A stretch of 64,000 bases of DNA, taken from Candidatus Tritonobacter lacicola. GTDB taxonomy: Bacteria > Auribacterota > Tritonobacteria > Tritonobacterales > Tritonobacteraceae. A program made the position numbers and the translations under genes. Below the pieces are notes generated by a model. The model saw only the letters and a program-made list of their open reading frames with translations, was not told the origin of the DNA and made no database searches. Location of the stretch: contig JAVCDC010000082.1 in the NCBI GenBank assembly GCA_030765135.1, positions 4,351 to 68,350 of the forward strand, written 5' to 3'. Shown here one piece after another: positions 23,177 to 55,419 of this stretch; the stretch's first letter is position 1, and every line of letters begins with the position of its first letter.

Positions 23177-24004
23177 TTATCCAGCCTCTTTTCTGATTCC
23201 GGCCAAAACCTGTTTATGTGTTTTGAATATCCTGCGGCGCTTCCTCCTCGGCCTGGTGGGAGAAGGAAGGTCCTCTATCTTCATATCCTCTATCACGGCC
23301 CGCGGATAATCCACGACCATAGAGCGCGCCCTCTCCCCGCCTACGACCTCTTCTGCCAATGCAACAGCCTCGCTTAAAACCGGGGGCCTCTTCCTTGAGT
23401 CATGGGCGTCCGAGGCGATAATATGCGCGAGATTGTTCTTCATGAGGGCGAACGCCGTGGATTCAGCTTTCTCTCCGAAGCCTCCCGTAACGCTCATCGC
23501 CGTGATCTGGGCCATGGCGCCACACTGAATGAGATCGAATAAAAGACCGGGATTGTCCTGAATGGCGGGATTCCTCTCCGGGTGAGTAACTATGGGAATA
23601 ACAGCCTCGGCGAGCAGCCTATCGATGAAACCGCTCATCACGGCGGGTGTCAAGAAAACCGAGAACTCAAGGAGAATGTATCTTCCGCCGTTTACAGTGA
23701 GACCCTCTCTCGACATCTTTAGCCTGTCGAGTATCTCCGGAACAGCATGAACGTCCGCGCCGGGCACTATCTCCAGGCCGGAATCCACGCACTCCATCAA
23801 CCCTGTCAAAGCATCGGTTATACGATCGGGGTCCGGGGAGACATGGAGAGGGCTCATGACGTGAGGCGATGCGACAATCGTTTTTATCCCGTCGGAAAGG
23901 GCGACGCGGCACATTTCCAAAGATTCTGCCATCGTCCGCGGCCCATCGTCTATGCCGGGAAGGATGTGGCAGTGAAGATCGATTAAAGAATGCTCAATTT
24001 TCAA
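23177..24004 (-). CDS. PHP-family protein-tyrosine phosphatase (CpsB/YwqE type; functional Wzb)
   Basis: LIDLHCHILPGIDDGPRTMAESLEM...IVASPH...VTHPERN...IASDAH are the four His-rich PHP motifs. The start is a TTG at 24004-24002 with an in-frame TGA two codons upstream. Confidence 0.85.
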   Translation of the reverse strand: MKIEHSLIDLHCHILPGIDDGPRTMAESLEMCRVALSDGIKTIVASPHVMSPLHVSPDPDRITDALTGLMECVDSGLEIVPGADVHAVPEILDRLKMSREGLTVNGGRYILLEFSVFLTPAVMSGFIDRLLAEAVIPIVTHPERNPAIQDNPGLLFDLIQCGAMAQITAMSVTGGFGEKAESTAFALMKNNLAHIIASDAHDSRKRPPVLSEAVALAEEVVGGERARSMVVDYPRAVIEDMKIEDLPSPTRPRRKRRRIFKTHKQVLAGIRKEAG

Positions 24005-26532: not shown

Positions 26533-27627
26533 CTATATCGCGAAGCTTGCGCCTGCCACCATCCCCACAAACTGGATAAAGCCCACCATGAAAGCCTTGA
26601 AATGGTTCTTCGGGACGACAACCAGATCTCCGCCCTGGATAAATGTGTCTTCGGCCTTACCTGTTTCCAGCTTGCTCAGGTTGAAGTGGATGCGGTGCTT
26701 CTTACCCGTCTCGTCGCGCCGTACGATACGGACGCTCCGGGGCCACGCCATGTTCGTCAGTCCCCCCGCGTGATGGACCACCTGAAGAACTGTAAAATCC
26801 CTCGTCAGGCTGTACTGCCCCGGTTTCTGCACCTCACCGGTAACGAAAAACGGGAGGGCGGGCGGGATATTGATGATATCGCCGGGCTGGAGGTAATGAT
26901 TGAGCGACTGGTCGCCCCTTTCCAGAAGCTGATGGAGATCCACGACTATGGGAGGAGCCAGCATGCCGGCGCTTCCCCTGCCTCTCTTCAGCTGGTAGCT
27001 GATCTGGTAAACGGTCGAGTCGCTGCTCGCCCCCGCGCGGATTAGAAAAAGGGTAAACCCGGCCTCCTCCGTCAGACCTTCGGCCTGGGACATGAAGTCT
27101 ATGAGAGTATTAACTTTCTTCGTGATGGGATAAGACCCGGGCTTGTTAACGGCGCCAACTACAAACACCTTCTTGCTCTTGTACTCCTTGACGAAGACGC
27201 TGACCTGCGGGTCATGGAGATACTTTTCCTCGAGAAGTTCGGTAATCTCATCCTGGAGGACCCCGGCAGTCTTGCCCTTGGCCTTTATATCCCTCAGGAG
27301 GGGCAGGTTTATCGTCCCGTCCCCTTCCACCCGCACCGACTTGCTGAGCTCGGGGACCTCGAACACCGTTATCTCCAGCAGGTCCTCCGGCCCGATGACA
27401 TAACCCTTACCCCAGAGTAAACGGGGCTCCTCCCTCGCAGCGACTCCCAGATAGGGAGGGGCGCTCGCCGGAATCAGTTCTCCGTCCCTCGCAACCACCT
27501 CGCAGGATTGGCCCCCTCCCCCGTCATGAAACCGGGCCTCGTTTATACGGTCGATCGAGCCTCCGGCGCAACCCGCAACCAGCGCAAGGCAGGAAAACAG
27601 ACAGGGGAAGAAGCGATAGCTTCTCAT
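26533..27627 (-). CDS. wza: Outer-membrane polysaccharide export lipoprotein (Wza-like; Poly_export + SLBB)
   Basis: A lipobox is present (ALVAGC). The Poly_export motif is YVIGPEDLLEITVFEVPELSKSVRVEGDGTINLPLLRDIKAKGKT, and SLBB-like repeats include GDIINIP and GDLVVVP. Confidence 0.9.
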   Translation of the reverse strand: MRSYRFFPCLFSCLALVAGCAGGSIDRINEARFHDGGGGQSCEVVARDGELIPASAPPYLGVAAREEPRLLWGKGYVIGPEDLLEITVFEVPELSKSVRVEGDGTINLPLLRDIKAKGKTAGVLQDEITELLEEKYLHDPQVSVFVKEYKSKKVFVVGAVNKPGSYPITKKVNTLIDFMSQAEGLTEEAGFTLFLIRAGASSDSTVYQISYQLKRGRGSAGMLAPPIVVDLHQLLERGDQSLNHYLQPGDIINIPPALPFFVTGEVQKPGQYSLTRDFTVLQVVHHAGGLTNMAWPRSVRIVRRDETGKKHRIHFNLSKLETGKAEDTFIQGGDLVVVPKNHFKAFMVGFIQFVGMVAGASFAI

Positions 27628-27770: not shown

Positions 27771-28616
27771 CTAACTAGGACTGGCCTGCTGCTTTCGCTG
27801 TTCCTCCAGGTAGTACTCCCTGTGCCTCTTCCTCCGGTCATGGTCCCTTTTACTGCTTCTCTGGGCTTCGTTTACTCCTATCGGGACGGAGATACCCGTG
27901 CCCACCACCGCGGCGCCGCCGCCCACGATTGCGGCCTTGGTCGCCATGGAAGTTCCTCCCAGGGCACCGGCGCCCGCCCGCACTATTGTCGTACTCTCGA
28001 CAAGCGCAAGCGTAGTAATCTTGCCGACATCCTTAGCCGGTCCGGGAGCTTTGCCCGCGGGGATCTCACAAGCCTGGCTCGAACCTATCTTCGTCTCGCC
28101 GGCAATCTTAGGATTGCTGCTCTTCGCGACGACATCTCCCTTTAAACAGGTGCTCCTGGTGAGGCCGGCCCCGGGTATCTCGACAACGTATTCCGTTCCC
28201 ATGACGCCGCATATTGCCGTGGCCGTTTTTATCTCGAACCTGGACTTGGGGCTCTTCAGCTTCCCGACCTTGGCCCTCATGATACCGCGCGCTGCCTGGA
28301 AAGACGACTGCTGCAGCTTTTCGGCGGGGTTATAATGGAACTCGGTGATCTTGACCTCGCTGTTATGTCCGAGGTTGAGCTCCGACCCGTCCTTGAAAAC
28401 AAGGTTTACCTTCGACTGAGGCTTGGTCCTCACGGAGTCGTTCAGGTAAACAAGGCCTTTAATTGCCAGGGGCTTCCACGCCTTCGCGTCCTGACGCATG
28501 ACCTCCACGGCGCCACGCATATTGGCGACGTAGCCAACCTCCTGGGCCGCAACGGAAAATGACGAAATCACCAAAGCCAATACGATTATAACAACACTAC
28601 GGGCTACCGCTTTCAC
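27771..28616 (-). CDS. FecR-domain periplasmic protein
   Basis: A signal peptide is followed by GYVANMRGAVEVMRQDAKAWKPLAIKGLVYLNDSVRTKPQSKVNLVFKDGSELNLGHNSEVKITEF, which matches the FecR sensor domain pattern. Confidence 0.75.
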   Translation of the reverse strand: MKAVARSVVIIVLALVISSFSVAAQEVGYVANMRGAVEVMRQDAKAWKPLAIKGLVYLNDSVRTKPQSKVNLVFKDGSELNLGHNSEVKITEFHYNPAEKLQQSSFQAARGIMRAKVGKLKSPKSRFEIKTATAICGVMGTEYVVEIPGAGLTRSTCLKGDVVAKSSNPKIAGETKIGSSQACEIPAGKAPGPAKDVGKITTLALVESTTIVRAGAGALGGTSMATKAAIVGGGAAVVGTGISVPIGVNEAQRSSKRDHDRRKRHREYYLEEQRKQQASPS

Positions 28617-29032: not shown

Positions 29033-31321
29033 ATGGCATCGATGTTTTCAACGCGCCCGGGTCGTAAACCGAAACTCATCGGCTTCCTTATCGGGATGCT
29101 CGCCCTCTTTATCTCTCTCTCATTCTACTTTCTCGGCGCTGAACTTCTGGACGTACTGGAGCTGAAAACGCTGGACCTCAGGTTCAGGATACGGGGCCCG
29201 ATCAGTCCCGGCAATCCAATTGCTATCGCGGCCATCGACCAGAAATCAATAGACAGGCTGGGAAGGTGGCCCTGGCCGCGATCTACCATTGGAACACTCC
29301 TGGAGACACTCAAGGAAAGAGGCGCGCTTGCAATCGGCATGGATGTCGTCTTCGCATCACCGGATAATAACCCGGCGCTAACCCAGGCGCGGACGCTCAT
29401 TGATGAATTCGACCGCACCGGCCTGGGAGAAACAGCCGGGAAAGGACCGGAGTTCAGGGATACACTCGAGAAAGCGCTGGCCGAATCGGACACAGACGCG
29501 GCCTTCGCGGAATCGATATCGAAAGTGGGCAATGTTGTCCTCGGCTACTTTTTCTTCCTCTCGCCCGATGAAATAGAACACGTCACCCCGGAGGAGAAGG
29601 AGCGGGACAGGGAGGCCCTCTCGATCACCACCGGGCCGTTCATCAAGAGGCTCTCGAAGAACGTCGACGAGAGCGGCATCCCCGTCGCCTTCGGCGTAAA
29701 GCCGAACATTATGAAGCTTTCCTCCAGGGCGAACTCCAGCGGATTCGTTAATTTCGCGCTCGACATCGATGGTGTCATCAGGTGGGCGCCGCTCATCATC
29801 CGCTACGGGCCATCCTACCACCTGTCACTGGATGTCGAGGTGATCGGCGAGTACCTTGGAATTCCCGCGACCCAGACCGCCGTCTACCTGGCTGATTACG
29901 GCGTTGCCGGCATCGCCATGGGGCCCGGGACAATCCCGACCGATGAAGGGGGAAAAATCCTCATTAACTACCGCGGGCCCGCCCGCACTTTCCCGTACTA
30001 TTCCATAAGCGACATTCTCTCCGGTGATGTGGGAAAAGAGGAGCTCGGCGGAAGGATCGTCCTTGTCGGCGCTACGGCAACAGGGCTGACGGACGTCAGG
30101 CTCACTCCCTTCTCGGGGAAATCGTGGATCTGTTTCCCGGGCGTTGAGGTCCACGCGAACGCCATCGACACTATTCTGGCGGGGGACGCAATATCGAGGC
30201 CGGACTGGTTCTACCTCATAGACCTGGTCTCCATGCTCTTCATCGGCCTAACACTGGCCATGGTTCTTCCCAGAGTTAAGGCCGTCCAGGGCTTCGCGTT
30301 CACCGCGGTTCTCCTCGCCGGCTACCTTTCGGTGGTCCAGTTAGCCTTCACGAAATTCGGAATGTGGTTGAACAGCACATGCCCCTCTCTCCTGATTATC
30401 ATGAGCTACCTTTTCATAACCACGTACCGCTTCATGACGGAGTATAAGCATAAGAACATGATAAAGAATGCGTTCAAGTTCTACCTCTCGCCACAGGTTG
30501 TTGAAGAAGTCGTCAAGGATGCCTCCACGCTCCGCCTTGGGGGGGAGAAGAAAGAATTGACCGTCCTTTTCTCCGACATCAAGGGCTTTACGTCCTTGTC
30601 GGAACAGGTCGAGCCCCACCTCCTCATTTCCATTCTCAACGAGTACCTCACCGGGATGACGGAGATCATCTTCCGTCACAACGGTACGCTGGACAAGTTC
30701 GTGGGGGACATGGTCATGGCCATCTGGGGGGCGCCTGTCGACCAGGACGACCACGCCGCAATGGCCTGCCGCGCAGCTCTTGACATGCAGGCCGCTCTTA
30801 AAGCGCTCAGGGAAAAATGGAATAAAGAAGGAAGGCCGATGATCAAGGCCAGGATCGGCATTAACTCGGGGGAGATGATCGTTGGAAACATGGGATCGAA
30901 GACACGGTTCGACTATACCGTCATCGGAGATAACGTCAACCTGGGGTCCCGGCTCGAGGATATAAACAAGCTCTACGGAACCGGTATTGTAGTCAGTGAG
31001 TCGACGCGGGACCTGGCAGGCGGTGAGTTCGTGTTCAGAGAGCTCGACACCGTCAGGGTTAAAGGAAAGAAGAAAGCCATCAGGATATACGAGCTTATGG
31101 ACTCAACCGCTTGGGCAGGAGAAACGGGTTTGCTGCCGGGCGCCTGGGACAAAGCTCTGGCTCTCTACAGAGAGCAGCGCTGGGATGAGGCGATGGATAG
31201 TTTCCGGGAATTTTTAAAAATGAACGAGAAGGACGGCCCGTCCCTGGCCTACATCGGGAGGATCGAGCAGCTGAAAAAGACAGGTGTACCGGAGAAATGG
31301 GACGGGGTAATGACACTGTAG
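29033..31321 (+). CDS. CHASE2-sensor class III adenylate/guanylate cyclase with C-terminal TPR-like tail
   Basis: A TM helix, a large periplasmic CHASE2-type region and further TM helices precede the cyclase core. The core reads ELTVLFSDIKGFTSLSE...KFVGDMVMAIWGAP...IGINSGEMIVGNMGS..RFDYTVIGDNVNLGSRLE. I took the first ATG at 29033; the track begins at a TTG at 28994. Confidence 0.85.
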   Translation: MASMFSTRPGRKPKLIGFLIGMLALFISLSFYFLGAELLDVLELKTLDLRFRIRGPISPGNPIAIAAIDQKSIDRLGRWPWPRSTIGTLLETLKERGALAIGMDVVFASPDNNPALTQARTLIDEFDRTGLGETAGKGPEFRDTLEKALAESDTDAAFAESISKVGNVVLGYFFFLSPDEIEHVTPEEKERDREALSITTGPFIKRLSKNVDESGIPVAFGVKPNIMKLSSRANSSGFVNFALDIDGVIRWAPLIIRYGPSYHLSLDVEVIGEYLGIPATQTAVYLADYGVAGIAMGPGTIPTDEGGKILINYRGPARTFPYYSISDILSGDVGKEELGGRIVLVGATATGLTDVRLTPFSGKSWICFPGVEVHANAIDTILAGDAISRPDWFYLIDLVSMLFIGLTLAMVLPRVKAVQGFAFTAVLLAGYLSVVQLAFTKFGMWLNSTCPSLLIIMSYLFITTYRFMTEYKHKNMIKNAFKFYLSPQVVEEVVKDASTLRLGGEKKELTVLFSDIKGFTSLSEQVEPHLLISILNEYLTGMTEIIFRHNGTLDKFVGDMVMAIWGAPVDQDDHAAMACRAALDMQAALKALREKWNKEGRPMIKARIGINSGEMIVGNMGSKTRFDYTVIGDNVNLGSRLEDINKLYGTGIVVSESTRDLAGGEFVFRELDTVRVKGKKKAIRIYELMDSTAWAGETGLLPGAWDKALALYREQRWDEAMDSFREFLKMNEKDGPSLAYIGRIEQLKKTGVPEKWDGVMTL

Positions 31322-38077: not shown

Positions 38078-38965
38078 TCAGCCCCGGGGATGGTACTTCT
38101 TATGGATTGATTTCAGCCTGTCTTTGTCGACGTGGGTGTAGATCTGCGTGGTGGAGATGTCCGCGTGGCCGAGAAGCTCCTGGACGACCCTGAGGTCGGC
38201 CCCGCCGCTCAGTAAATGGCTTGCGAAGGAGTGCCTCAGGCTGTGGGGTGTAATGTCTTTTTCAATACCGCTCCTCCTGGCGTGGAGCTTTACCCGCTTC
38301 CAGAGCCCCTGCCTGGTAAAAGCCCCCCCCCGGCGCGTGACGAAGAGAGAATCGGAGGCGCTTCCCTTCAACAGCGCCGGCCTGGCCGTCTCCAGATATG
38401 AGACGAGGAACCGGCGCGCGTAGTGGCCGAGGGGGACTACCCGCTCCTTCATGCCCTTCCCCCTGCATTTCACGAACCCGACCTCGAAATTGATGTCGAC
38501 GGTGGAGAGGCCGGAGACCTCGGAGACCCTGAGGCCCGAGGCGTACATCAGCTCGAGTATGGCCCTGTCCCTGAGGCCTATCGGGGATGACGTGTCGGGC
38601 GCCTTCAGCAGCTCCTCAACCTCCGCCGGAGAGAGAATGTCCGGGAGATACTTCCACAGCTTGGGGGACTCCAGAACCTCAGCGATGTCCTTCCTCACAT
38701 ACCTGTTCGCCGCGAGGAACCTGAAGAGCATCTTCAGGGCGGCAAGGTTCCTGGCTATCGACCTGGCGGAGAGGCCCCGGCGCTTCTCGCTCACCATGAA
38801 AGACATTATATCGTCCCTTCCCGCGCGCTCCAGGGAACCCCTACCCTTCTCTTTCATGAACTCCATGAACTTGCCTATGTCCCGCCTGTAAGCATCGATG
38901 GTGTTCGGGGAGGACCCCTTCTCCACGGAGAGAAAATTGAGAAACTCCTCGACGAGGATATCCAT
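38078..38965 (-). CDS. xerD: Tyrosine recombinase XerD (XerC/XerD family)
   Basis: MDILVEEFLNFLSVEKGSSPNTIDAYRRDIGKF... at the N-terminus and HSLRHSFASHLLSGGADLRVVQELLGHADISTTQIYTHV at the C-terminus. The ATG at 38965 shares one nucleotide with the upstream TGA. The track's longer N-terminus is Arg/Pro-rich and lies inside the MBL gene. Confidence 0.85.
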   Translation of the reverse strand: MDILVEEFLNFLSVEKGSSPNTIDAYRRDIGKFMEFMKEKGRGSLERAGRDDIMSFMVSEKRRGLSARSIARNLAALKMLFRFLAANRYVRKDIAEVLESPKLWKYLPDILSPAEVEELLKAPDTSSPIGLRDRAILELMYASGLRVSEVSGLSTVDINFEVGFVKCRGKGMKERVVPLGHYARRFLVSYLETARPALLKGSASDSLFVTRRGGAFTRQGLWKRVKLHARRSGIEKDITPHSLRHSFASHLLSGGADLRVVQELLGHADISTTQIYTHVDKDRLKSIHKKYHPRG

Positions 38966-39606
38966 CACATTCTCACGAAGGCGTTCCCCGACTTCTCGCT
39001 GCCGATTGTCGAATTCTCGCCGTGGCCGGGGAGGACAACGGTGTCGTCGGGGAGAGAGTAGAGCTTTTCCCGGATGCTTCTCTCCAGTTCCCGCATGGAG
39101 CCGCCCGGAAAGTCCGTCCGCCCGATGCCGCCCGCGAAGAGGGTATCGCCCGTGAAAAGTATCCGCCCCTCCCTCCAGTAGAGGCATACCCCCCCCTCCG
39201 TGTGGCCGGGCGTGTGGATCACCTCGAGCCTGATATCGCCGACCCAGAAGGTATCACCGTGCTCCAACGTGACATCCGGAGGAGGAGACGGGATAACCCT
39301 TACACCCATAAGCGACAGTAAGTCACTGCCGGACTGCATAAGGGTGGAATCCAGCCCGTGGGCGACGATCTCCAGGCCGAATTCATTCTTCAGGTCGGCG
39401 TTGGCGCTAACGTGATCGGGATGGCCGTGCGTATTGATTATGTATAATGGCCTCACACCGGCATCCCTCACGGCGGCGGCTATCTCATCCGCGTCGTCCC
39501 CCGGATCGATGACGGCGGCCTCCCCCGTCTTCCCGCAGCCTATCAGGTAGCAGTTTACCGCGAGCGGCCCGACAACAATTCTCTTAATAAAGTCTTCTTT
39601 ATCCAC
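38965..39606 (-). CDS. MBL-fold metallo-hydrolase (glyoxalase II-like)
   Basis: INTHGHPDHV (H-x-H-x-D-H), HTPGHTEG and VLPGHG motifs are present. Confidence 0.85.
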   Translation of the reverse strand: MDKEDFIKRIVVGPLAVNCYLIGCGKTGEAAVIDPGDDADEIAAAVRDAGVRPLYIINTHGHPDHVSANADLKNEFGLEIVAHGLDSTLMQSGSDLLSLMGVRVIPSPPPDVTLEHGDTFWVGDIRLEVIHTPGHTEGGVCLYWREGRILFTGDTLFAGGIGRTDFPGGSMRELERSIREKLYSLPDDTVVLPGHGENSTIGSEKSGNAFVRM

Positions 39607-39704: not shown

Positions 39705-40373
39705 TTAGTCAATAAGCAAAGCCTTTATTTTTGCCAATTCTCTCTGATAAGAAATCCCATCGAGCACAAAATCCCTGTAGGAATTTGGCTCGATCTTTAA
39801 GATATCTGCGTATTTACAAATTCTATCACTATCTTCAACTTCACCTATATACTCTCGATAGGAGGATGCTAACCAATCTTCCGGTTTACTGACCAGGGAC
39901 GCAGTTACGGGATTCAGATGAATGTACCTTGTTAAGTGAAGCAATTGCTCATCGGTTTTAACAAGCACATTTTTAAACCTTCCCTCCCATAAAGGCCCCT
40001 TCCTCTTATGCTTTATATTGAAATAACGAGCATAGCTATTAAGAATATTCCTCATCAAAATAGTAATCCCCGTATCCTTTAACTGAGTAAGGATCAGATG
40101 CAAATGAGTAGGCATAATGCAATAAGCTATTATTTCAACGAGTTTGCTTCTATTACATGAAACCGTCGTACCGGAAAAGTTTTTATCGGATCTTTTTAAT
40201 CGCGCAAATCCGGAAAACTTAACAGGGGGTTTCTCCCGCTGATAATAGCGAATAGTTGCTACTATTCTGGAAAAATCAGTCTCATGTTTAAATATCTTGA
40301 ACCTTGAAATACTTTTATTGAAAACGTGATAAACCTGGCCATTCACCAACGGAGTTTTTCTTTTATACACCAT
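39705..40373 (-). CDS. REP-associated tyrosine transposase (RAYT; IS200/IS605 Y1 HUH family, COG1943)
   Basis: The HUH motif is in IIAYCIMPTHLHLILTQL, followed by KGPLWEGRFK and the catalytic-Tyr region LTRYIHLNPV. REP-like hairpins lie on both sides. Confidence 0.8.
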   Translation of the reverse strand: MVYKRKTPLVNGQVYHVFNKSISRFKIFKHETDFSRIVATIRYYQREKPPVKFSGFARLKRSDKNFSGTTVSCNRSKLVEIIAYCIMPTHLHLILTQLKDTGITILMRNILNSYARYFNIKHKRKGPLWEGRFKNVLVKTDEQLLHLTRYIHLNPVTASLVSKPEDWLASSYREYIGEVEDSDRICKYADILKIEPNSYRDFVLDGISYQRELAKIKALLID

Positions 40374-43647: not shown

Positions 43648-43726
43648 TGGTCGGAGCGGTGGGATTTGAACCCACGGCCTCAGCGTCCCGAACGCTGCGC
43701 GCTAAACCGGACTGCGCCACGCTCCG
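43648..43726 (-). tRNA. tRNA-Pro (anticodon CGG), CCA encoded
   Basis: The reverse complement folds by hand as a cloverleaf. The acceptor is CGGAGCG/CGCTCCG, the D-stem GCGC/GCGC and the anticodon stem CAGCG/CGCTG. The anticodon loop is TTCGGGA, the T-arm is GTGGG-TTCAAAT-CCCAC, and the discriminator A is followed by CCA. Confidence 0.85.
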
Positions 43727-48227: not shown

Positions 48228-49415
48228 TCAGGAATCCACATCGAGGTGCTTCTTCAGCCTTGACACAGCCTCCTTCAGGCGCTCCTCTTTCTGGACCAGG
48301 GCGAACCTGACGTAACCCTCCCCGTACTCGCCGAAGCCTGTGCCCGGAGCGACAGCGACGCCGGTTTCTTCCAGGAGAAGCGTCGCGAATTCAAGGGAAG
48401 TCAGGGCACTGTACTTCAAGGGTATTCTCGCCCAGACATAAAACGTTCCCTTTGGCAGGGGAACGTTCCAGCCGATCTCCTTCAAACCGTTTACGAACAC
48501 GTCTCTCCTGCGCCTGTAAATCTCGACCGTCTCCAGCACGTATTCGTCGGAGCCGTCGAGACAGGCTATAGCGGCGCACTGGATAGGCCGGAAAATGCCG
48601 AAGTCGACGTAGCTCTTTGTTTTGGCTATGGATTTCAGTATCCTCCTGTTGCCCACGGCGTAGCCGATCCTCCACCCGGCCATGCTGTACGACTTTGACA
48701 TCGTGTGAAACTCGACCCCGATTGTCCTGGCGTCCCCGACCTGCATCATGCTCGGGGACCGGTAGCCGTCGAAAACAATATCCGAATAGGCAAGGTCATG
48801 GGCCACTATGATATCGTTTTTCTTAGCCCAGGCCACAACGCGCTCAAAGAACTCCAGATCAACGACTGCCGCCGTCGGGTTATGCGGATAGCTGATAAGG
48901 AGGAGCTTTGCCATCCTTACTATATGTTTATCGAGCTTATCAAGCTCGGGCTTGTAATCGTTCCCCGGGCCGAGAGGAAGGTTGTAAAGAATCCCGCCGG
49001 CCATGATCGCCCCGTTAAAGTGGACGGGGTACGCCGGGCTCGGGACAAGCGCGATATCGTCGTTATTTAAAAATGCAAGGGAGAGATGGGCTATCCCCTC
49101 CTTCGCGCCTATCAGGGGAAGGACCTCAGTAGCCGGATCGAGGTCGACGCCGAACTTTCTGCCGTACCAGTCTGCGATAGCCCTCTTGAGATCCTGCTCA
49201 ATCGGCCCATAGCTCTTTGAATAACCGTGGTTATCCGAATCGGCGGCAGCCTCGCAGAGAGCGCTCAACGCCCGGGGCGGAGCTCCGAGGTCCGGATTGC
49301 CCATGCTCAGATCTATTACATCGACCCCCCTCGCGGCCACCTTTTGCTTCAGATCGTCCACAATCGTAAAAAGGTACGGGGGTAGCCTTAGCATCCTGTT
49401 CGCTTCTCGTATCAT
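48228..49415 (-). CDS. Class I/II PLP-dependent aminotransferase (AlaC/DapL-like)
   Basis: LPPYLFTIVDDLK, LSMGNPD, ISYPHNPT and the PLP-lysine region HTMSKSYSMAGWRIGY are present. GGAGGG lies upstream of the ATG. Confidence 0.85.
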   Translation of the reverse strand: MIREANRMLRLPPYLFTIVDDLKQKVAARGVDVIDLSMGNPDLGAPPRALSALCEAAADSDNHGYSKSYGPIEQDLKRAIADWYGRKFGVDLDPATEVLPLIGAKEGIAHLSLAFLNNDDIALVPSPAYPVHFNGAIMAGGILYNLPLGPGNDYKPELDKLDKHIVRMAKLLLISYPHNPTAAVVDLEFFERVVAWAKKNDIIVAHDLAYSDIVFDGYRSPSMMQVGDARTIGVEFHTMSKSYSMAGWRIGYAVGNRRILKSIAKTKSYVDFGIFRPIQCAAIACLDGSDEYVLETVEIYRRRRDVFVNGLKEIGWNVPLPKGTFYVWARIPLKYSALTSLEFATLLLEETGVAVAPGTGFGEYGEGYVRFALVQKEERLKEAVSRLKKHLDVDS

Positions 49416-49541
49416 GAGATTAATTCCCTCCCTGAATGAATACGTATTGTATCCGCTTTCCTGGAAAAAAAACAGTCAACTCTATATAAAACCCGATATT
49501 CTGTCATCAAGAATACAACCGTTCAATAGTCAATTGAGAAA

Positions 49542-49563
49542 GTACCGCGTTCATAACGCGTAC
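49542..49563. promoter_or_regulatory. 22-bp near-palindrome, candidate enhancer (UAS) for a sigma-54 activator
   Basis: GTACCGCGTT-CAT-AACGCGTAC (one bulged C) lies about 140 nt upstream of the -24/-12 element. The function is inferred from position only. Confidence 0.3.
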
Positions 49564-49700
49564 AAATGAAGTATATCTTCAATTCTTGTGAAGAACGTCT
49601 TCATTATTATAACAGGATCGCTCCAGGGATGAAAAACCATGCTTATTGCATTTTGCTCTGCTGCAAGATAATACAGCTAAAATGGTGGATACCGGTCTTC

Positions 49701-49716
49701 TGGAACAATTATTGCA
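49701..49716 (+). promoter_or_regulatory. Sigma-54 (-24/-12) promoter candidate for the pseudopilin operon
   Basis: TGGAAC-AATTA-TTGCA has GG and GC exactly 12 nt apart, as in TGGCAC-N5-TTGCW. Caveat: the -12 GC is only 16 nt from the ATG at 49731. Confidence 0.5.
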
Positions 49717-49730
49717 TGTAATCAGGCGGC

Positions 49731-50201
49731 ATGAAAACCATTTCAGACGAATCCGGTGTGACATTAATGGAGGTATTGATAAGCGTCCTCCTGTTCTCTG
49801 TATTTACAGCCTGTTTTATCTCATCCCTCTGGTTCTGCAACTCAACCGCCAGGTTATCAACCCACAGCATGACTGCATGCAACCTCGCACAGCAGCAGAT
49901 CGAGTGTTTACGGGGAAAGTCATTCGCCAACATAGAGCTCGGCAGCTCCGGAGATGACTACGAAGTCTCCGCGTATTCAGAGGAGTATGTCCAGCTCGAC
50001 ACAGCCATCTACGCGGATATAAACGTTTATGTCGAGGGAAGGGACTTAAACGACAATACCGACAGCGACGGCGACGGGACGTCAAACGCGGGCAAGGACG
50101 TCGTGAGGAAATATATCAAGGTTAACATCGGGTGGACGGAGAGCGGAAAGGAGTACGTCCAGCTGCTGGAGACAATGGTAGCTACCGGTGGCGAGGGTTA
50201 A
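49731..50201 (+). CDS. Prepilin-type N-terminal cleavage/methylation domain protein (GspI/PilV-like minor pseudopilin)
   Basis: MKTISDESG|VTLMEVLISVLLFSVF shows a short leader, Gly, a hydrophobic helix and Glu at +5. Confidence 0.7.
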   Translation: MKTISDESGVTLMEVLISVLLFSVFTACFISSLWFCNSTARLSTHSMTACNLAQQQIECLRGKSFANIELGSSGDDYEVSAYSEEYVQLDTAIYADINVYVEGRDLNDNTDSDGDGTSNAGKDVVRKYIKVNIGWTESGKEYVQLLETMVATGGEG

Positions 50202-50205
50202 AACG

Positions 50206-50739
50206 ATGGTAAAGCCGGGGAGGAACGACGGGTTCACGATGGCGGAGTTGATGATCAGCGTCGTCCTCTCCGGGATCGTGATGGGAGCGATACTTACATT
50301 CTTCCTCACGGGCTATTCGGTGCTTTTCGGGGGCTTCCATCAGATAGCCGCCAAGATGGATTCGCACAGAACAGTCGAGAAGATCGTGGAAGACACGCGC
50401 CATGCCCGCACGGTCAGGCTTTACGACCACTACGACCCGGATCATCCGGGGAGCGAGGTGCAGGAGGGTAATTATCTCGAGCTCTGCTTCCCCACGGGCC
50501 TCGGCAGGGACGACGTCGGGTACTACCTCTCCAGTAACCAGCTTGTGTTCATAGACGACCTGAACGATCAGCAGCCCAATCATATTATGGTCTCGGAGGA
50601 GATCGAGCCCGTTTCCGGATCTTACGTATTCTTCAAGAACACCGGGGGCTACTCCATAAAATTCAAGCACAGGGACGTCAGTACGAAGGACGGGGACCAG
50701 AGAGTGCGTATAATAACCGACGTACAGCCGAGGAATTGA
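50206..50739 (+). CDS. Prepilin-type N-terminal domain protein (GspJ/PilW-like minor pseudopilin)
   Basis: MVKPGRNDG|FTMAELMISVVLSGIVMG has Glu at +5. The ATG at 50206 lies 4 nt after the upstream stop; the track ORF starts at a GTG at 50188. Confidence 0.7.
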   Translation: MVKPGRNDGFTMAELMISVVLSGIVMGAILTFFLTGYSVLFGGFHQIAAKMDSHRTVEKIVEDTRHARTVRLYDHYDPDHPGSEVQEGNYLELCFPTGLGRDDVGYYLSSNQLVFIDDLNDQQPNHIMVSEEIEPVSGSYVFFKNTGGYSIKFKHRDVSTKDGDQRVRIITDVQPRN

Positions 50740-50741
50740 CC

Positions 50742-52886
50742 ATGATCGGATACCGATGGAAAACGAAAAAGAACGCCGGCAGCACCCTGGTAACATCCAT
50801 GATAACGGTGCTGGTCCTCTCCGGCCTCCTCGCAAGCTACCTGGGGCTCGTCAGCGGGGACTACTCCCAGACAAGGCGCTCCAGCGAGAGCAAGAGGGCG
50901 TTCTACGCCGCCGAGGCGTACGTGGAGAAGGTCGTATCCCAGATACTGAACGATTACTCATCGATGCAGATACCGGACTCCGCGAGGCTGTCGGGGCTGA
51001 GCGGCCAGTCCAACTGGCCTTCCTACGAGGGCCTGACGTTCCAGGCCGGGGGGACGGGCGTCTCCGTCGGGGCTTCGGGGAGCGAGGTCATCCAGGAGGG
51101 CAAGCTCAAGGGGTTGTACGAGCTGTACACGGAGTACGATGTACAGGCGGAGGTCATATCCGACTCGAACGGGGCGCGGGCGGCGGTGCAGCAGACCGTG
51201 CGGGCAAGGTTCATAGGCCTCTTCCAGTTCGCGGCGTTCTACGACGAGGACCTGGAGTTCGTGCCCGGGCCGACCGTCACGATGGTCGGCTGGGTCCACT
51301 CCAACAAGGACCTGTGGCTTGACAAGGGCGGTGGAACGCTCTACTTCGACTCATACTGGATCGATGAGAACAACCACTCCCTGGGCAAGGTCTACCCGCG
51401 GGTGACGGCGGCGGGATGCATCTACCAGGGAGACAAGAGCGGCAGGAAGAACGGCGGAGGTTCGGTCAAGATACGGGACAGGCAGGGAGAGGGCGGGGAC
51501 TGGAACGACCAGTATCAGAACATGAAGCAGCCCGGCGTGGACGACGACGGTGACGAATCCTCCGACGAGGACCCCCGCGACGGCGTGGACAACGACGGGG
51601 ACAGCGTGGTGGACGAGGACGACGCGTGGCTGCAGCACACGAACGCCGACTGGCAGGCGACCTCCCAGGAGCTCTGGGACGGCAACGTCCAGGACGTGGC
51701 GCACGGGATGTTCAACCTCAACCTGCCGCTGCCCGAGCTGTCCGAGGAGCTCGAGGAGGAGTACGGCGTCAACAAGGAGATCATCCTGATAGAGAAGGGC
51801 GACGCGGTCGACCCGGACAACTCGCAGGAGCTCGCGGACTACCCGGAGCTGGAGGAGGCGCGGTTCTACTGGCAGGCGGACCTCAGGTTGCTCGTGGAGG
51901 ATGACCGCTTCTTCGACGATGGGACAGAGAAGTACGTCACCGAGACAGAGGTCAAAGGCTACGACGGAGACGGCACCGCCGTCATAAGCGAGACGAAGTA
52001 CTACGACGATGAGGGCTACCGCCTGGACCCGGCGAATGACTACGAAAGGATATGGTCGGACCGGGATGACCAGGAGGAGGGCGAGGAGGACGATATCTGG
52101 CGGAGGAGGACGTTCAACGACGGGCGCGAGTGGGCGACGATGAAGTCGCTTGAGCGGGACGAGTGCGAGGACACCTACGAGAAGCACAACATGGTCACGG
52201 TGGACGTCGATGTCGGCAACCTCATAGACACGATGGACTCGGACAGCGATTTCTGTCTGAAGAACGGCATCCTTTACGTACACCGCGAGGGGTCCCCCTA
52301 CGGTCGCTATGACGGCGTGAGGCTTGTCAACGCGCAGACGATGCCCGACGGGACACAGGCGAACGGGAACGTGAGGGGCCTGACAGTGGCCACGGACAAC
52401 CGCCTTTACGTCCTGGGCAATTACAATACGACGGCCGCGGGAACGTCGAGCCAGCGGCCGGCCGCCATAGCCGGAGACGCCATCAGCATACTCTCGAACT
52501 CGTGGACGGACGAGAAGAGCACGGATAGCCTGAGCAACCGCAGGGCGTCAAACACGACGCTTTACACTGCCATGATGATGGGCAACTACGAGAGCTCCCA
52601 GAACGACTACAACGGGGGACTGGAGAACCTGCCCCGTTTCCTCGAGTATTGGTCCGGTAAGACGGCCAAGATCAGGGGCTCCATGGTGGATCTCTGGTAC
52701 TCGAACGAGAAGATCAGGGACTGGTACGGCAACAAGACTCTGGTCAGCAAGTGGTCGTACGGCAGCTACTACACAGCGCCCAACAGGGACTGGGGCTACG
52801 ACAAGTTCTTCGACGACCCGCTGAACTGGCCCCCGGGGACCCCCATGGTCGTGAGCGTCGGCGCCACGCTGTGGAAAAGGAAATAG
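50742..52886 (+). CDS. Large PilX-N/GspK-like pseudopilin-type protein with acidic Ca-binding-like repeats
   Basis: KKNAG|STLVTSMITVLVLSGLL has no Glu at +5, and is followed by SESKRAFYAAEAYVEKV (PilX_N-like). Tandem units DDDGDESSDED / DNDGDSVVDED lie at 51537-51623. GAGG lies upstream of the ATG at 50742; the track starts at a TTG at 50736. Confidence 0.65.
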   Translation: MIGYRWKTKKNAGSTLVTSMITVLVLSGLLASYLGLVSGDYSQTRRSSESKRAFYAAEAYVEKVVSQILNDYSSMQIPDSARLSGLSGQSNWPSYEGLTFQAGGTGVSVGASGSEVIQEGKLKGLYELYTEYDVQAEVISDSNGARAAVQQTVRARFIGLFQFAAFYDEDLEFVPGPTVTMVGWVHSNKDLWLDKGGGTLYFDSYWIDENNHSLGKVYPRVTAAGCIYQGDKSGRKNGGGSVKIRDRQGEGGDWNDQYQNMKQPGVDDDGDESSDEDPRDGVDNDGDSVVDEDDAWLQHTNADWQATSQELWDGNVQDVAHGMFNLNLPLPELSEELEEEYGVNKEIILIEKGDAVDPDNSQELADYPELEEARFYWQADLRLLVEDDRFFDDGTEKYVTETEVKGYDGDGTAVISETKYYDDEGYRLDPANDYERIWSDRDDQEEGEEDDIWRRRTFNDGREWATMKSLERDECEDTYEKHNMVTVDVDVGNLIDTMDSDSDFCLKNGILYVHREGSPYGRYDGVRLVNAQTMPDGTQANGNVRGLTVATDNRLYVLGNYNTTAAGTSSQRPAAIAGDAISILSNSWTDEKSTDSLSNRRASNTTLYTAMMMGNYESSQNDYNGGLENLPRFLEYWSGKTAKIRGSMVDLWYSNEKIRDWYGNKTLVSKWSYGSYYTAPNRDWGYDKFFDDPLNWPPGTPMVVSVGATLWKRK

Positions 52887-52890
52887 TTAT

Positions 52891-52997
52891 GAAAATAAGA
52901 TAATAAGTAAAAAATAAGTTCCCCGGCTTCGTCCCCATTTCCTTGTATTTCCGTATTCCCTTATTACTTTATTCTCTTATTTCCTTATTATCTTATT
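52891..52997. terminator. AT-rich long inverted repeat between convergent genes (candidate bidirectional terminator)
   Basis: GAAAATAAGATAATAAG (52891-52907) pairs with CTTATTATCTTATT (52984-52997) for 14 perfect bp. The whole spacer is built from AATAAG/CTTATT words. Confidence 0.4.
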
Positions 52998-53009
52998 ATT
53001 TTATATTTC

Positions 53010-54335
53010 CTATTTAAAGTCTTTTGAGCTCATGCCGAGGTTCTTCAGCTTTTCATAGAGGGCCCTCGAGCTTATCCCCATCTCGATAGCCGCGCGGGTG
53101 ACGTCCCCCCCCTCTTTCTTCAGGACATCCTCGATGAACTTCCTGTCGAAATCCGCAAGGGCCCCTTTTCTGGCACTGCGGTAATCAAGGATCTCCGCGG
53201 AACAGGTCCCCTTAATCCTGTCCGGGATGTCCTCCAGTCCCATGACGCCGCCCGTGCTCACCGTGCACGCATGTTCGATGACGTTCTCCAGTTCCCTGAC
53301 ATTGCCCGGCCACCCGTACACCAGCAGCAGCTTCAGAGCCTCGCCGTTGAATTTTTTCTCTCTCCGGGTACTTATCAGAAAATGATCGATCAGGAGCGCT
53401 ATGTCCCCGGGCCTTTCCCTGAGAGGAGGGACATGGATGGAGACGACATCGAGCCTGTAATAAAGGTCCTTGCGGAACCTTCCCTCCTCAACGTCCCACC
53501 TGAGGTTACGATTTGTGGCTGCGATGACCCTTACATCCACGGGATAAAAATCATCTCCTCCCACCGGACGGACTCTCATATCCTCCAGGAGCCGGAGAAA
53601 CTTGGCCTGGAGCCCCAGGCCGAGATTTGCCACCTCATCGAGAAATACCGTCCCCCCGTCGGCCGACCGGATAAGTCCCACACGCTCCTCGTCGGCCCCC
53701 GTGAACGCTCCCTTCTTATGGCCGAAAAGCTCGCTCTCCAGGAGGCTCTCGCTCAGGGCGCCGCAGTCAATCGCCACGAACGGCCCCCCGGCTCGCGCGC
53801 TCCCTCCATGGATTGCCCGTGCCACCAGCTCCTTGCCCGTCCCGCTCTCCCCCTGGATAAGGACGGTAACCTCGCTTTTCGCCACCTTGTGAATAAGCTC
53901 ATGGACCCTGCGAATGGCCCCGCTGTCGCCGATGATCCCATCCACCCGGGTCCCGGAGGGAGGGGCAGCCTCCAGGAGCTTTTTCTCGCGGACGTTCTTC
54001 GCAATCATGTCTATCTGGGCGGCATCGAACGGCTTGGTAATGTAATCAACGGCCCCTCTCCTGATCGCCTCCACCGCGGTCTCGACCGAGGCATACGCCG
54101 TCATCATCACTATATCGGCGGCAGGATCCAGGGCCTTTATCTTTTCGATAACGCCCATACCGTCGAGCCCCTCCATCTTCAGGTCGACGACGACCAGATC
54201 CGGGGACTCTTTCCTGAAGAGCTCCACCCCCTCCTCCCCCGCCCCGGCATCACACACTTCGTGTCCGAGGACGGAGAGGGAATCGAAAAGGTACTGTCTC
54301 ACGCGCCTGTCATCATCTATTACCAGGATCTTCAC
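53010..54335 (-). CDS. Sigma-54-dependent response regulator (NtrC/PilR-type bEBP)
   Basis: A receiver domain (MKILVIDDD...VVVDLKM), an AAA+ domain with GESGTGKELVARAIH and ELFGHKKGAFTGA (GAFTGA loop), and a C-terminal Fis-type HTH (GDVTRAAIEMGISSRALYEKLK) are present. Confidence 0.9.
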   Translation of the reverse strand: MKILVIDDDRRVRQYLFDSLSVLGHEVCDAGAGEEGVELFRKESPDLVVVDLKMEGLDGMGVIEKIKALDPAADIVMMTAYASVETAVEAIRRGAVDYITKPFDAAQIDMIAKNVREKKLLEAAPPSGTRVDGIIGDSGAIRRVHELIHKVAKSEVTVLIQGESGTGKELVARAIHGGSARAGGPFVAIDCGALSESLLESELFGHKKGAFTGADEERVGLIRSADGGTVFLDEVANLGLGLQAKFLRLLEDMRVRPVGGDDFYPVDVRVIAATNRNLRWDVEEGRFRKDLYYRLDVVSIHVPPLRERPGDIALLIDHFLISTRREKKFNGEALKLLLVYGWPGNVRELENVIEHACTVSTGGVMGLEDIPDRIKGTCSAEILDYRSARKGALADFDRKFIEDVLKKEGGDVTRAAIEMGISSRALYEKLKNLGMSSKDFK

Positions 54336-55419
54336 GTTCCTCCTTCATTGCCGGCAGGTATATCGTAATCTCGGACCCCTGCCCGGGCCCGGACATCACT
54401 TCGACCCTCCCGCCGTGATCCGTGATTATGCCATACGAGATGGAGAGTCCGAGCCCGGTCCCGCTAGCCGGTCCCTTGGTTGTAAAGAACGGCTGAAATA
54501 TCTCGCGGCGTCTCGCCTCATCCATGCCCTCGCCGTTATCCTTCACGGAGATTGCAACATATCCATCGCCGGCGCGGGAGCAAACCTCTATCACCCCTGC
54601 CGGGCCCTTGATCGCCTGCTGGGCGTTAATTATAAGGTTAGCGAGGACCTGCTGGAGCTGGCTGTCGTTGCCGAGAACGGCCGGCGCCGGTTCAATCCGG
54701 ACGATAAATTCAACACCTTTATCATCGAGACCGGGCCGCATCAGTTTCTCTATTGTCCGAACGACCTCCCCTACATCCACCCGGGAGAACGTCGACCTGT
54801 CCTGGCGGGCGAATGTCAGGAGCCTCCTTATGATATCACTGCCTCTCGTGGCGCACTCCTCGATGATCTCCGCCTTCCGCACCGACTCCTCGTCGGCGAC
54901 GGCCGACTTCAGAAGCGCGGCATACCCGATAATGGGCATCATGATATTGTTCATCTCGTGGGCTATGCCCGCGGCCATCTCCCCCACGGCGGAAAGCCTC
55001 TCGGCGCTGATCAGCTGCCTGGTCCTCTCCTCGACCTTCTTCTCGAGCCCCCTGTTTGCCTCCTCTATCATCCCGGCCTGCGCCTCTATCCGGGCCATGA
55101 TGCGGCTGAGCTCCTCGTAAAGGAAATCGATCTCCCCCTTCAAGGGCCTGGTTCCGTCCCACCTGCCGAGGGCTACCGATCTCATATCCCTCTGAAGCCG
55201 GACCATCGCCCTGGATCCGGACCAGACCATGACAACGCCGAGGGAGGCTACCAGAACGGTCAGGAGAAATATCGAGGTATACTCCCACCGCGCCGGGACC
55301 TCATACCCCGGCCCGATGGCCGTGTAGCAAAGGACAAGGGCGGGAATGACGGCAACAAGGGCGAAACCGGCGGCCAGCCTCGCCCCCCGTTTCCTCGAAC
55401 CTTGTTTCATATATATCAT
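54313..55419 (-). CDS. Sensor histidine kinase (2 TM, HAMP-like, HisKA, HATPase_c)
   Basis: The H-box is GEMAAGIAHEMNNIM, the N-box LQQVLANLIINAQQA, and the G-boxes VKDNGEGM and GTGLGLSISYGI. It overlaps the regulator gene by 23 nt. Confidence 0.85.
   Translation of the reverse strand: MIYMKQGSRKRGARLAAGFALVAVIPALVLCYTAIGPGYEVPARWEYTSIFLLTVLVASLGVVMVWSGSRAMVRLQRDMRSVALGRWDGTRPLKGEIDFLYEELSRIMARIEAQAGMIEEANRGLEKKVEERTRQLISAERLSAVGEMAAGIAHEMNNIMMPIIGYAALLKSAVADEESVRKAEIIEECATRGSDIIRRLLTFARQDRSTFSRVDVGEVVRTIEKLMRPGLDDKGVEFIVRIEPAPAVLGNDSQLQQVLANLIINAQQAIKGPAGVIEVCSRAGDGYVAISVKDNGEGMDEARRREIFQPFFTTKGPASGTGLGLSISYGIITDHGGRVEVMSGPGQGSEITIYLPAMKEEREDPGNR

Follow-up and report, generated by a model that had tools for sequence, protein, structure and literature searches.

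The closest described systems are pili whose tip subunits carry bulky insertions. ComZ of Thermus thermophilus has a GspK-like pilin fold in which a large beta-solenoid is inserted before the last strand; it binds DNA, and a position at the pilus tip, together with its neighbour PilA2, has been argued for it (PMC6561018). A solenoid has been reported in every cyanobacterial PilX homolog, HpsA being one PilX subfamily, and this solenoid may replace PilY1 as the plug of the tip (bioRxiv 10.64898/2026.02.12.705559). In Xanthomonas oryzae, the minor-pilin operon fimT-pilVWXYE is under RpoN2-PilRX (sigma-54/PilR) control (PMC7170775). Here we describe three co-directional plus-strand genes (ORF1, ORF2 and ORF3) in a 64,000-nucleotide stretch of Candidatus Tritonobacter lacicola DNA (contig JAVCDC010000082.1, positions 4,351 to 68,350; hereafter the window), together with the promoter before them and the two-component system beside them. 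We conclude, with a probability of about 0.78, that the trio encodes the core minor pilins of the tip (priming) complex of a type IV pilus-like filament whose machinery is encoded elsewhere. We are more confident still that the three products form a PilV/(PilW)/PilX-solenoid tip set.

ORF3 is a member of a structural class already described, that of ComZ, cyanobacterial PilX and HpsA-like proteins; the assignment follows from the fold match to ComZ and from the published descriptions of ComZ and cyanobacterial PilX. Assembly proteins with a PilX_N domain are likewise of this known kind. The likeness to ComZ (PDB 6QVI), modelled on the ORF3 side, comprises a pilin helix with a FYAAEAGL-type motif, a GspK-like sheet and a beta-solenoid before the last strand. 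In each case the gene comes after genes for small minor pilins, and the protein is too bulky for any position other than the tip. The two differ in that sequence homology does not extend beyond ~40 N-terminal residues, and in the acidity of ORF3 and its additional insert of ~230 residues; ComZ binds DNA, whereas this is unlikely for ORF3 by composition (pI 4.4). With cyanobacterial PilX/HpsA (PilX-EPS), ORF3 shares the C-terminal region GGLENxPRFxExW...RGS...P.R.W.YD...PP.TP, a PilX_N-type N-terminus, the lack of Glu5 and a co-occurring PilV-class partner, but it comes from outside the cyanobacteria, reaches at most half the length of HpsA and lacks neighbouring hps glycosyltransferase genes. 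To our knowledge cyanobacteria lack sigma-54, and the regulation therefore differs from that of cyanobacterial PilX/HpsA.

Gene order and subunit roles, including a last subunit without Glu5, are those of Pseudomonas FimU-PilV-PilW-PilX and of GspH-I-J-K in the type II secretion system (T2SS), and related loci (e.g. L011) keep a GspH/FimU-like first gene. The window operon differs from the Pseudomonas set in having no FimU/GspH-type adaptor, PilY1 or PilE, in an ORF3 of 714 amino acids with a predicted solenoid against ~195 amino acids for Pseudomonas PilX, and in an ORF2 that matches neither PilW nor GspJ. The Pseudomonas fimU-pilVWXY1E genes also lie apart from the machinery genes, a layout mirrored by the window operon. 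The regulatory logic of the operon is also of a known kind: as in the sigma-54/PilS-PilR systems of Pseudomonas, Myxococcus and Geobacter, a -24/-12 promoter precedes pilin genes, and an NtrC-family activator and a kinase are encoded nearby. It differs from PilS-PilR in that the kinase has two rather than six transmembrane segments, the target is a minor-pilin operon rather than pilA, and the mRNA is predicted to be nearly leaderless. New here are the acidic inserts, the adaptor gene missing from the operon, an ORF2 without relatives beyond its own lineage, the near-leaderless sigma-54 transcript and the poorly sampled lineage. We regard the lineage-specific acidic insert and the near-leaderless transcript as small curiosities and not as a new kind of system.

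Three prepilin genes form a compact operon

ORF1 (49731-50201, plus strand, 156 amino acids, pI 4.2), ORF2 (50206-50739, plus strand, 177 amino acids) and ORF3 (50742-52886, plus strand, 714 amino acids) are separated by gaps of 4 nt (ORF1/ORF2) and 2 nt (ORF2/ORF3). The class III prepilin signature, a short leader to Gly(-1) followed by a hydrophobic helix of ~20 residues, was observed directly in all three products. With the cleavage site marked by a slash, the signals read MKTISDESG/VTLME in ORF1 and MVKPGRNDG/FTMAE in ORF2, both with Glu at +5, and KKNAG/STLVT in ORF3, in which Thr at +5 is as expected for a cap subunit. The ORF coordinates and leader sequences confirm the tight packing and the distribution of Glu5 that the first-pass annotation of this DNA had noticed; its description of the trio as the only plus-strand operon holds for the local block (~40-63 kb) but not for the whole window, in which 29033-31321 is also on the plus strand. 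The N_methyl model (Pfam PF07963) matched ORF2 above its cut-off (E = 7.5e-6) and ORF1 below it (E = 1.8e-3).

A start of ORF1 at Met13, as called on contig L092, was rejected. It would delete the leader M-K-x-x-S-x-x-x-G and the cleavage Gly(-1), and because both are conserved in the ortholog on contig L010 the ATG cannot move, which speaks against the earlier suggestion of a mis-called start. For ORF2 there is an alternative in-frame GTG at 50188; gene callers chose the ATG on six metagenome contigs.

ORF3 has a pI of 4.39, a D+E content of 17.4% and a GC content of 0.62. Its GC content at third codon positions (GC3), 0.887, is the highest among the 49 long ORFs of the window, compared to 0.67-0.76 for the neighbours, so the earlier impression of a visibly GC-richer gene was correct. 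The housekeeping proteins of the window are not acidic (pI 5-10), and acidity is therefore specific to ORF1 and ORF3. Codon bias for high expression and foreign origin are both candidate causes of the high GC3, which also accounts for long spurious antisense ORFs over ORF3 (e.g. 51351-52283).

ORF3 belongs to a widespread family of solenoid-bearing PilX proteins

A set of 5.8 billion proteins held 56 detectable relatives of ORF3: one 80% ortholog (contig L010, same synteny), a handful that are ~31% identical over the full length, and many whose similarity is confined to about the C-terminal quarter. Scanning one genome per species, we found the family in at least 405 species genomes, the best among the matches listed having 33% identity. 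The taxa include Planctomycetota (Scalindua, Pirellulales), Zixibacteria, Ignavibacteria, NC10/Methylomirabilota, Gemmatimonadota, Binatia, KSB1, Calditrichota and Trueperaceae. Family members run from ~550 to 1300 amino acids, so the cap that the first-pass annotation called unusually large is of normal size for a family already described as ComZ, cyanobacterial PilX and HpsA.

The family alignment of 28 sequences has Gly(-1), the hydrophobic helix and a FYAAEAG motif in common, and Glu5 occurs in none of its members; ORF3 has AFYAAEAYVE aligned with this motif. Two further conserved blocks are LFQFAAFYD.DLE..PGP...G.VH.N and, at the C-terminus, the GGLEN.PRF.E.W region given above. PilX_N (PF14341) was matched by 13 of the 28 members (best E = 1.5e-10). 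The HpsA model (EPS_HpsA, NCBIfam NF038301) gave a partial match in 27 of them; in ORF3, residues 600-687 aligned with model positions 1332-1439 at E = 7e-17, scoring 60.4 bits against an equivalog cut-off of 400. By this match, ORF3 has a domain in common with HpsA without being an HpsA equivalog. GspK profiles (T2SS_GspK NF037980 and Pfam T2SSK) gave no match on ORF3 and matched a single member of the alignment (E = 4.9e-6). Thus, among the profiles to which the first-pass annotation had pointed, N_methyl was found on ORF2, while N_methyl on ORF1 and PilX_N on ORF3 stayed below their cut-offs and GspK did not match.

An AlphaFold model of ORF3 built on the family alignment had a mean predicted local distance difference test score (pLDDT) of 68 and a predicted template modelling score of 0.72. 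It consists of an N-terminal helix (residues 12-73), a four-stranded sheet, many short strands and a final C-terminal strand pair. In a Foldseek comparison with the PDB, its only significant match was ComZ 6QVI (E = 1.2e-5, probability 1.0), the alignment spanning the full length. When a Trueperaceae (Deinococcota) member of the family was taken as a bridge, it gave no match to ComZ.

Solenoid-bearing PilX proteins, hitherto discussed for Thermus and cyanobacteria, are widespread across phyla, and one C-terminal motif is common to them. This is relevant to how pili get capped in bacteria without PilY1.

ORF1 is a PilV/GspI-class protein and ORF2 a prepilin at the PilW position

Taken alone, ORF1 matched PilV (TIGR02523, 3e-3) and GspI (TIGR01707, 0.32) below their cut-offs, and ComGE at 3.7e-4. 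It aligned over its full length with the group of genes found in its place in related operons (hhalign probability 97.7% over 76 columns), and in this group PilV was matched by 18 of 20 members (best 1.8e-13) and GspI by 13 of 20. These alignments suggest that ORF1 belongs to the PilV/GspI class. When the profile of the ORF1 group was compared with the PDB, pilin N-terminal helices were matched and nothing else.

ORF2 is a bona fide prepilin with only two relatives among the 5.8 billion proteins (89% and 73% identity). Profile scans gave no PilW (PF16074) or GspJ match and a weak one to HpsC (0.067), and an hhalign alignment was confined to the N-terminal 34 residues. An AlphaFold model of ORF2 from a three-sequence alignment was unreliable (pLDDT 52); Foldseek found no pilin fold match for it, and the small heat-shock proteins returned at E > 0.03 are meaningless.

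These results support the earlier proposal that the trio is a minor-pilin tip module, equivalent in kind to GspI/J/K = PilV/W/X and capped by a PilX-N protein that has no Glu5. For annotation, three products without a name in any source become PilV-class, PilW-position and PilX-class (ComZ/HpsA-like) tip subunits.

Two subunits carry lineage-specific acidic insertions

An acidic insertion in ORF3 (51501-52181, plus strand, ~residues 254-480) spans ~230 residues, is locally 25-40% D+E and includes two Asp-rich loops. Of the 28 aligned family members, just the window protein and the 80% ortholog have it, and most of it was modelled with pLDDT < 50. The two Asp-rich units that the first-pass annotation had likened to thrombospondin-type and GspK calcium-binding loops, DDDGDESSDED and DNDGDSVVDED, are both present at 51540-51620; the analogy has no profile support, and the units fall in a region of pLDDT < 50. 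The isolated 45-residue loop segment matched no Pfam family at E <= 1, TSP_3 (PF02412) included, and the units are not a tandem repeat at the DNA level. We therefore rejected homology to thrombospondin or other calcium-binding repeats. The register of the loops, xxDxDGDxxxDxD, fits neither the thrombospondin pattern (DxDxDGxxDxxD) nor DxDxDG.

ORF1 has a 32-residue acidic insertion of its own at residues ~120-150, which is lineage-specific and absent from all 18 of the 18 PilV-like relatives outside the lineage. It holds a canonical DxDxDG motif, which reads DSDGDG in the window protein and DSDGNG in its L010 ortholog. Since Asp-rich loops were gained in the same lineage by two subunits of the same predicted complex, their sequences suggest that the tip may be cation-dependent.

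The operon is separated from pilus machinery, as is usual in the family

Among gene products scanned across the window there was no PilB/GspE, PilC/GspF, PilM, secretin or prepilin peptidase; a tblastn search of the whole window covered the ATPase, the platform and PilM only. We compared 80 independent related genome loci, taking up to 10 kb on each side of the family gene. A PilB/GspE-type ATPase was encoded within this distance in 11 of them and in none of the other 69. The closest full-length relative, P0006 (31% identity), lies within a complete type IV pilus-like cluster in the order MshEN-PilB, PilC, a 139-amino-acid pilin, small prepilins, the big protein and PilM. The first-pass annotation had called the trio an orphan and, besides a machine encoded elsewhere, saw in this a possible pointer to a distinct fibre or adhesin. 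The absence of machinery from the window stands, but with separation from the ATPase usual in the family (69/80 loci) and the closest relatives in type IV pilus-like clusters, the layout is no evidence for a distinct fibre.

A typical related operon encodes a FimU/GspH-like protein (~160 amino acids), a PilV-like protein (~125), a PilW-like protein (~275) and the big protein (~550), and the window operon is without the FimU/GspH-type gene. At locus L011, a second tandem PilV-like/PilW-like/big-protein set (11842-15069) directly follows the first, amounting to a duplicated tip module.

A sigma-54-type promoter precedes the operon

The sequence TGGAACAATTATTGCA at 49701-49716 (plus strand; GG at 49702-3, GC at 49714-5) is the sole match to TGGMAC-N5-TTGCW in the 64 kb, where 0.08 would be expected by chance, and it agrees with TGGCAC-N5-TTGCW at 10 of 11 positions. 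The -24/-12 element with exact spacing, TGGAAC-N5-TTGCA, which the first-pass annotation had picked out, is thus confirmed, and it is conserved: in L010 the 315-nt intergenic region has strongly diverged and the promoter is kept as TGGAACGATTATTGCT, while in L091 and L092, two contigs of a closer relative, the element is identical. This conservation, in three further contigs in all, was observed directly. Across the 80 family loci, the 2.8 kb in front of the big gene contained 10 sigma-54-like sites on the sense strand against 2.5 expected (Poisson P = 3e-4), a site being counted when it had both GG and GC and agreed with the consensus at 10 or more of 11 positions. Most of these sites immediately precede either the big gene or the PilV-like one. 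The adjacent gene for a GAFTGA activator implies that the organism has sigma-54, and we consider it likely that the predicted sigma-54 promoter is genuine. No plus-strand sigma-70-like site turned up in a scan of 49416-49730, and a sigma-70 promoter for the operon was rejected.

As the first-pass annotation had cautioned, the ATG follows the -12 element at a distance of 16 nt, and the predicted leader is 4 nt (6 nt in L010). With transcription predicted to start at ~49727, counting from the C of the -12 element at 49715, and the ATG fixed, the transcript would be effectively leaderless.

Two inverted repeats of the form TGAAG-N5-CTTCA (49567-49581 and 49589-49603) lie upstream, their centres 22 bp apart at ~-152 and ~-130 from the predicted start. 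The block is kept in L091/L092 and, with one mismatch per site, in L010, while the flanks diverge. Such spacing and distance are the classical geometry of upstream activating sites of the NtrC/PilR type. On sequence grounds we put the pair forward, tentatively, as a candidate enhancer to which the regulator may bind. The 22-bp near-palindrome GTACCGCGTTCATAACGCGTAC at 49542-49563, earlier proposed for this role by its distance from the promoter, is shared by the window and its close relatives L091/L092, whereas L010 lacks it owing to a 30-nt deletion. It is therefore not conserved; we rejected it as an enhancer, and it is probably not part of the system. A scan also read it as a weak minus-strand hairpin.

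Sigma-70-like sites on the minus strand of 49416-49730, which might drive the divergent aminotransferase gene, lack conservation in L010. One of them, at 49606-49635, is an extended -10 promoter-like sequence (TTTTCA-18-TATAAT, 10/12) that faces this gene; it was reported as overlapping the conserved inverted repeats, and its -10 is not conserved in L010. At L091 the sequence left of the promoter region that it shares with the window (L091 1-60 versus window 49400-49460) is wholly different, so the synteny with the aminotransferase gene is broken in this relative, whose ORF2 is 89% identical.

A convergent two-component system lies beside the operon

The gene convergent with ORF3 (53010-54335, minus strand) encodes an NtrC-family sigma-54 activator with the architecture REC - AAA+ (GAFTGA) - Fis-type helix-turn-helix (HTH_8), matched by Sigma54_activat (E = 9.5e-67) and Response_reg. 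Next to it, also on the minus strand, lies the gene of a histidine kinase with HisKA and HATPase_c domains (54313-55419). The convergent kinase and GAFTGA-bearing activator reported earlier are thus present, and the activator is a reasonable candidate regulator. The likeness to PilS/PilR holds for the REC-AAA+-HTH architecture, which is common to all NtrC-family regulators and therefore not specific to PilR; it does not extend to the kinase, with its two transmembrane segments against six, or to the best named models of the regulator, which are AtoC, ZraR and NtrC. The hydrophobic segments of the kinase (~15-34 and ~49-66) are joined by a loop of ~14 residues, and it has no extracytoplasmic sensor domain; it is of the intramembrane-sensing type. 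Its gene begins 5 nt past the stop codon of argS and shares 23 nt with the regulator gene; given this tight packing, the pair looks co-transcribed with a housekeeping operon (argS, rsfS, nadD, proA, proB, obg, rpmA, rplU).

The kinase/regulator pair is kept in L010, and the regulator has the same convergent position in L010, L080 and L082. An activator gene is directly adjacent in four unrelated loci (L032, L035, L080 and L082), each with GG-N10-GC before the operon. In L032 and L035 (NC10) the order is activator, near-consensus TGGCAC-N5-CTGCT, big gene; in L080 (Zixibacteria) and L082 (Ignavibacteria) the PilV-like gene has a weaker CGGTATCCTNTTTGC (CGGTAT-N5-TTGC) in front of it, and the activator gene follows the big gene in convergent orientation, as in the window. 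Some family operons therefore combine a sigma-54-type promoter with an adjacent activator gene. We lean towards the adjacent regulator as the activator of the pilin operon; because recognisable orthologs end at 74% identity, the link between the two is one of adjacency.

The convergent stop codons are separated by an AT-rich spacer of 123 nt (52887-53009) with a long imperfect inverted repeat (AATAAGATAATAAG ... CTTATTATCTTATT) and a fold z of -2.9 relative to shuffles. A terminator scan found no canonical terminator in this spacer, which may act as a bidirectional terminator.

Proposed assembly and regulation of the tip complex

We propose that a prepilin peptidase encoded elsewhere would cleave the three prepilins at Gly-1, and that ORF1 (PilV/GspI class), ORF2 (PilW/GspJ position) and ORF3 would then associate via their N-terminal helices. 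The tip complex would be assembled on a type IV pilus platform, with motor, platform, peptidase, secretin and major pilin all encoded elsewhere. From the absence of Glu5 and the bulky beta-solenoid we infer a distal position for ORF3, which may serve as a cap or plug and is probably an adhesin, as proposed for ComZ and cyanobacterial PilX. The lineage gains, the ~230-residue acidic insertion of ORF3 and the Asp-rich DxDxDG loop of ORF1, together probably bind Ca2+ or another cation, and such loops would shape what the tip adheres to. Transcription would start from the sigma-54 promoter at 49701-49716 and would require an AAA+ activator, most likely the adjacent response regulator. The two-transmembrane kinase would phosphorylate this regulator, which may then bind the conserved TGAAG-N5-CTTCA pair ~130-150 nt upstream; the resulting mRNA is predicted to be almost leaderless.

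A bolder version of this scheme takes the tip complex to be re-engineered as a cation-dependent adhesin, in which ORF1 DSDGDG and the ORF3 Asp loops form a cap that binds Ca2+, other metal or mineral, and the kinase senses the membrane pool of prepilins, as PilS senses PilA, feeding back through the sigma-54 activator onto the leaderless transcript. We consider this version improbable. If true, it would describe a self-regulating minor-pilin module distinct from known PilSR circuits.

Alternative explanations

Several results weigh against a sigma-54-controlled tip module of this kind. The window encodes no pilus machinery, major pilin or FimU/GspH-type adaptor, and the partner machine is assumed. 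PilX_N on ORF3 itself reached only E = 0.37, below its cut-off. The TM-score between ORF3 and ComZ is just 0.22-0.29, so that the match is at the level of fold only; this low value is due to disordered inserts and the orientation of the helix. When the family profile was compared with the PDB, ComZ was matched in sequence over the N-terminal FYAAEAGL motif only (~40 residues, E = 0.17). ORF2 is placed in the PilW/GspJ role by gene position only, its globular fold being unmatched. On the regulatory side, a leader of ~4 nt is unusual for a sigma-54 transcript, the relatives of the regulator drop from a 74% identity ortholog to 47%, a generic level, and the overall frequency of activator genes within 10 kb (12 of 80 loci) does not clearly exceed chance.

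The trio could instead be the GspI-GspJ-GspK tip of a true T2SS pseudopilus acting as a piston for protein export. The GspI matches of 13 of the 20 members of the ORF1 group, the one ORF3-family member with a T2SS_GspK match (4.9e-6) and the finding that the pilin domain of ComZ is structurally closest to GspK (PMC6561018) fit this; we nevertheless hold it to be very unlikely, as PilV matches are stronger and more frequent in the same group (18/20, best 1.8e-13), the clusters of the closest relatives hold PilM and an MshEN-type PilB, ORF3 has no GspK-domain match, and a ~60 Å wide solenoid has been described for pilus tips and not for T2SS. Another function for a pilus-type tip would be to prime an Hps-like filament for exopolysaccharide (EPS) secretion or EPS-dependent gliding, as proposed for cyanobacterial HpsA-D, with ORF3 binding the cell's own polysaccharide. 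This draws on the HpsA match of the ORF3 C-terminus (E = 7e-17), the weak HpsC match of ORF2 (0.067), the large Wzx/Wzy/Wza/Wzc cluster at 1-28 kb of the window and the proposal that PilX-EPS binds EPS (bioRxiv 10.64898/2026.02.12.705559). The HpsA score, however, is 60 bits against a cut-off of 400, and the same partial match in 27 of 28 family members, from non-cyanobacterial phyla, marks the whole family and not an Hps function; moreover, the EPS cluster is more than 21 kb away, beyond housekeeping genes, an integrase gene and an IS200-type transposase gene. An Hps-like role thus seems unlikely. A role of ORF3 as a DNA receptor of the ComZ type, at a competence-pilus tip, appears even less so: its pI of 4.4, its 17% D+E and an insert that is 25-40% acidic are unfavourable for DNA binding, its sequence similarity to ComZ is limited to the N-terminal motif, and no competence genes are among the products scanned in the window, although ComZ is the only significant structural match of the ORF3 model, binds DNA and pairs with a neighbouring minor pilin (PMC6561018). 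Least probable of all is a new surface fibre or adhesin system that is complete in itself and works without a type IV pilus or T2SS machine. Scans of the 64-kb window did find no machinery genes, but prepilins require a dedicated peptidase, platform and ATPase, there is no ATPase nearby in 69 of the 80 loci, and the clustered members of the family are within standard type IV pilus loci. We therefore favour the tip complex of a type IV pilus-like filament.

A separate question is which activator drives this tip operon. The sigma-54 promoter could be real while the adjacent kinase and regulator control something else, their adjacency being coincidental and another activator acting on the pilin genes. 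The pair is packed behind argS and looks co-transcribed with the housekeeping block, the regulator is modelled best by AtoC, ZraR and NtrC and has no recognisable orthologs past 74%, and activators occur within 10 kb in just the 12 loci mentioned. Set against this are the same convergent arrangement in the 80% ortholog and in the Zixibacteria and Ignavibacteria loci, and two NC10 loci with an activator directly upstream of TGGCAC-N5-CTGCT and the big gene. Control by another activator is possible but, in our judgement, rather doubtful.

Other features of the window

The single tRNA gene of the window is at 43651-43726, and there is no rRNA gene. The first 20 kb has a GC content of 0.36-0.49, markedly below the remainder. 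A large Wzx/Wzy-type exopolysaccharide cluster occupies 1-28520 on the minus strand. It encodes a sugar transferase (1031-2467), a GH2 hydrolase (4569-7208), a sulfatase (7208-9133), two Wzy_C proteins (13373-14797 and 20569-22002), a Wzx flippase (17563-19029), CpsB (23177-23932), a Wzc-like kinase (24245-26530) and Wza (26533-27627), all on the minus strand, as well as a GT9 glycosyltransferase. Beyond the polysaccharide region, and before the housekeeping block, come a tyrosine recombinase/integrase gene (38078-39187, minus strand) and an IS200-type Y1 transposase gene (39705-40373, minus strand; GC 0.37). The polysaccharide export genes adjoin a gene for a FecR-like protein (27771-28520, minus strand) and one for an adenylate/guanylate cyclase with a CHASE2 domain (29033-31321, plus strand); the cyclase is of interest because cAMP has been linked to PilX-dependent surface sensing in cyanobacteria (bioRxiv 10.64898/2026.02.12.705559).

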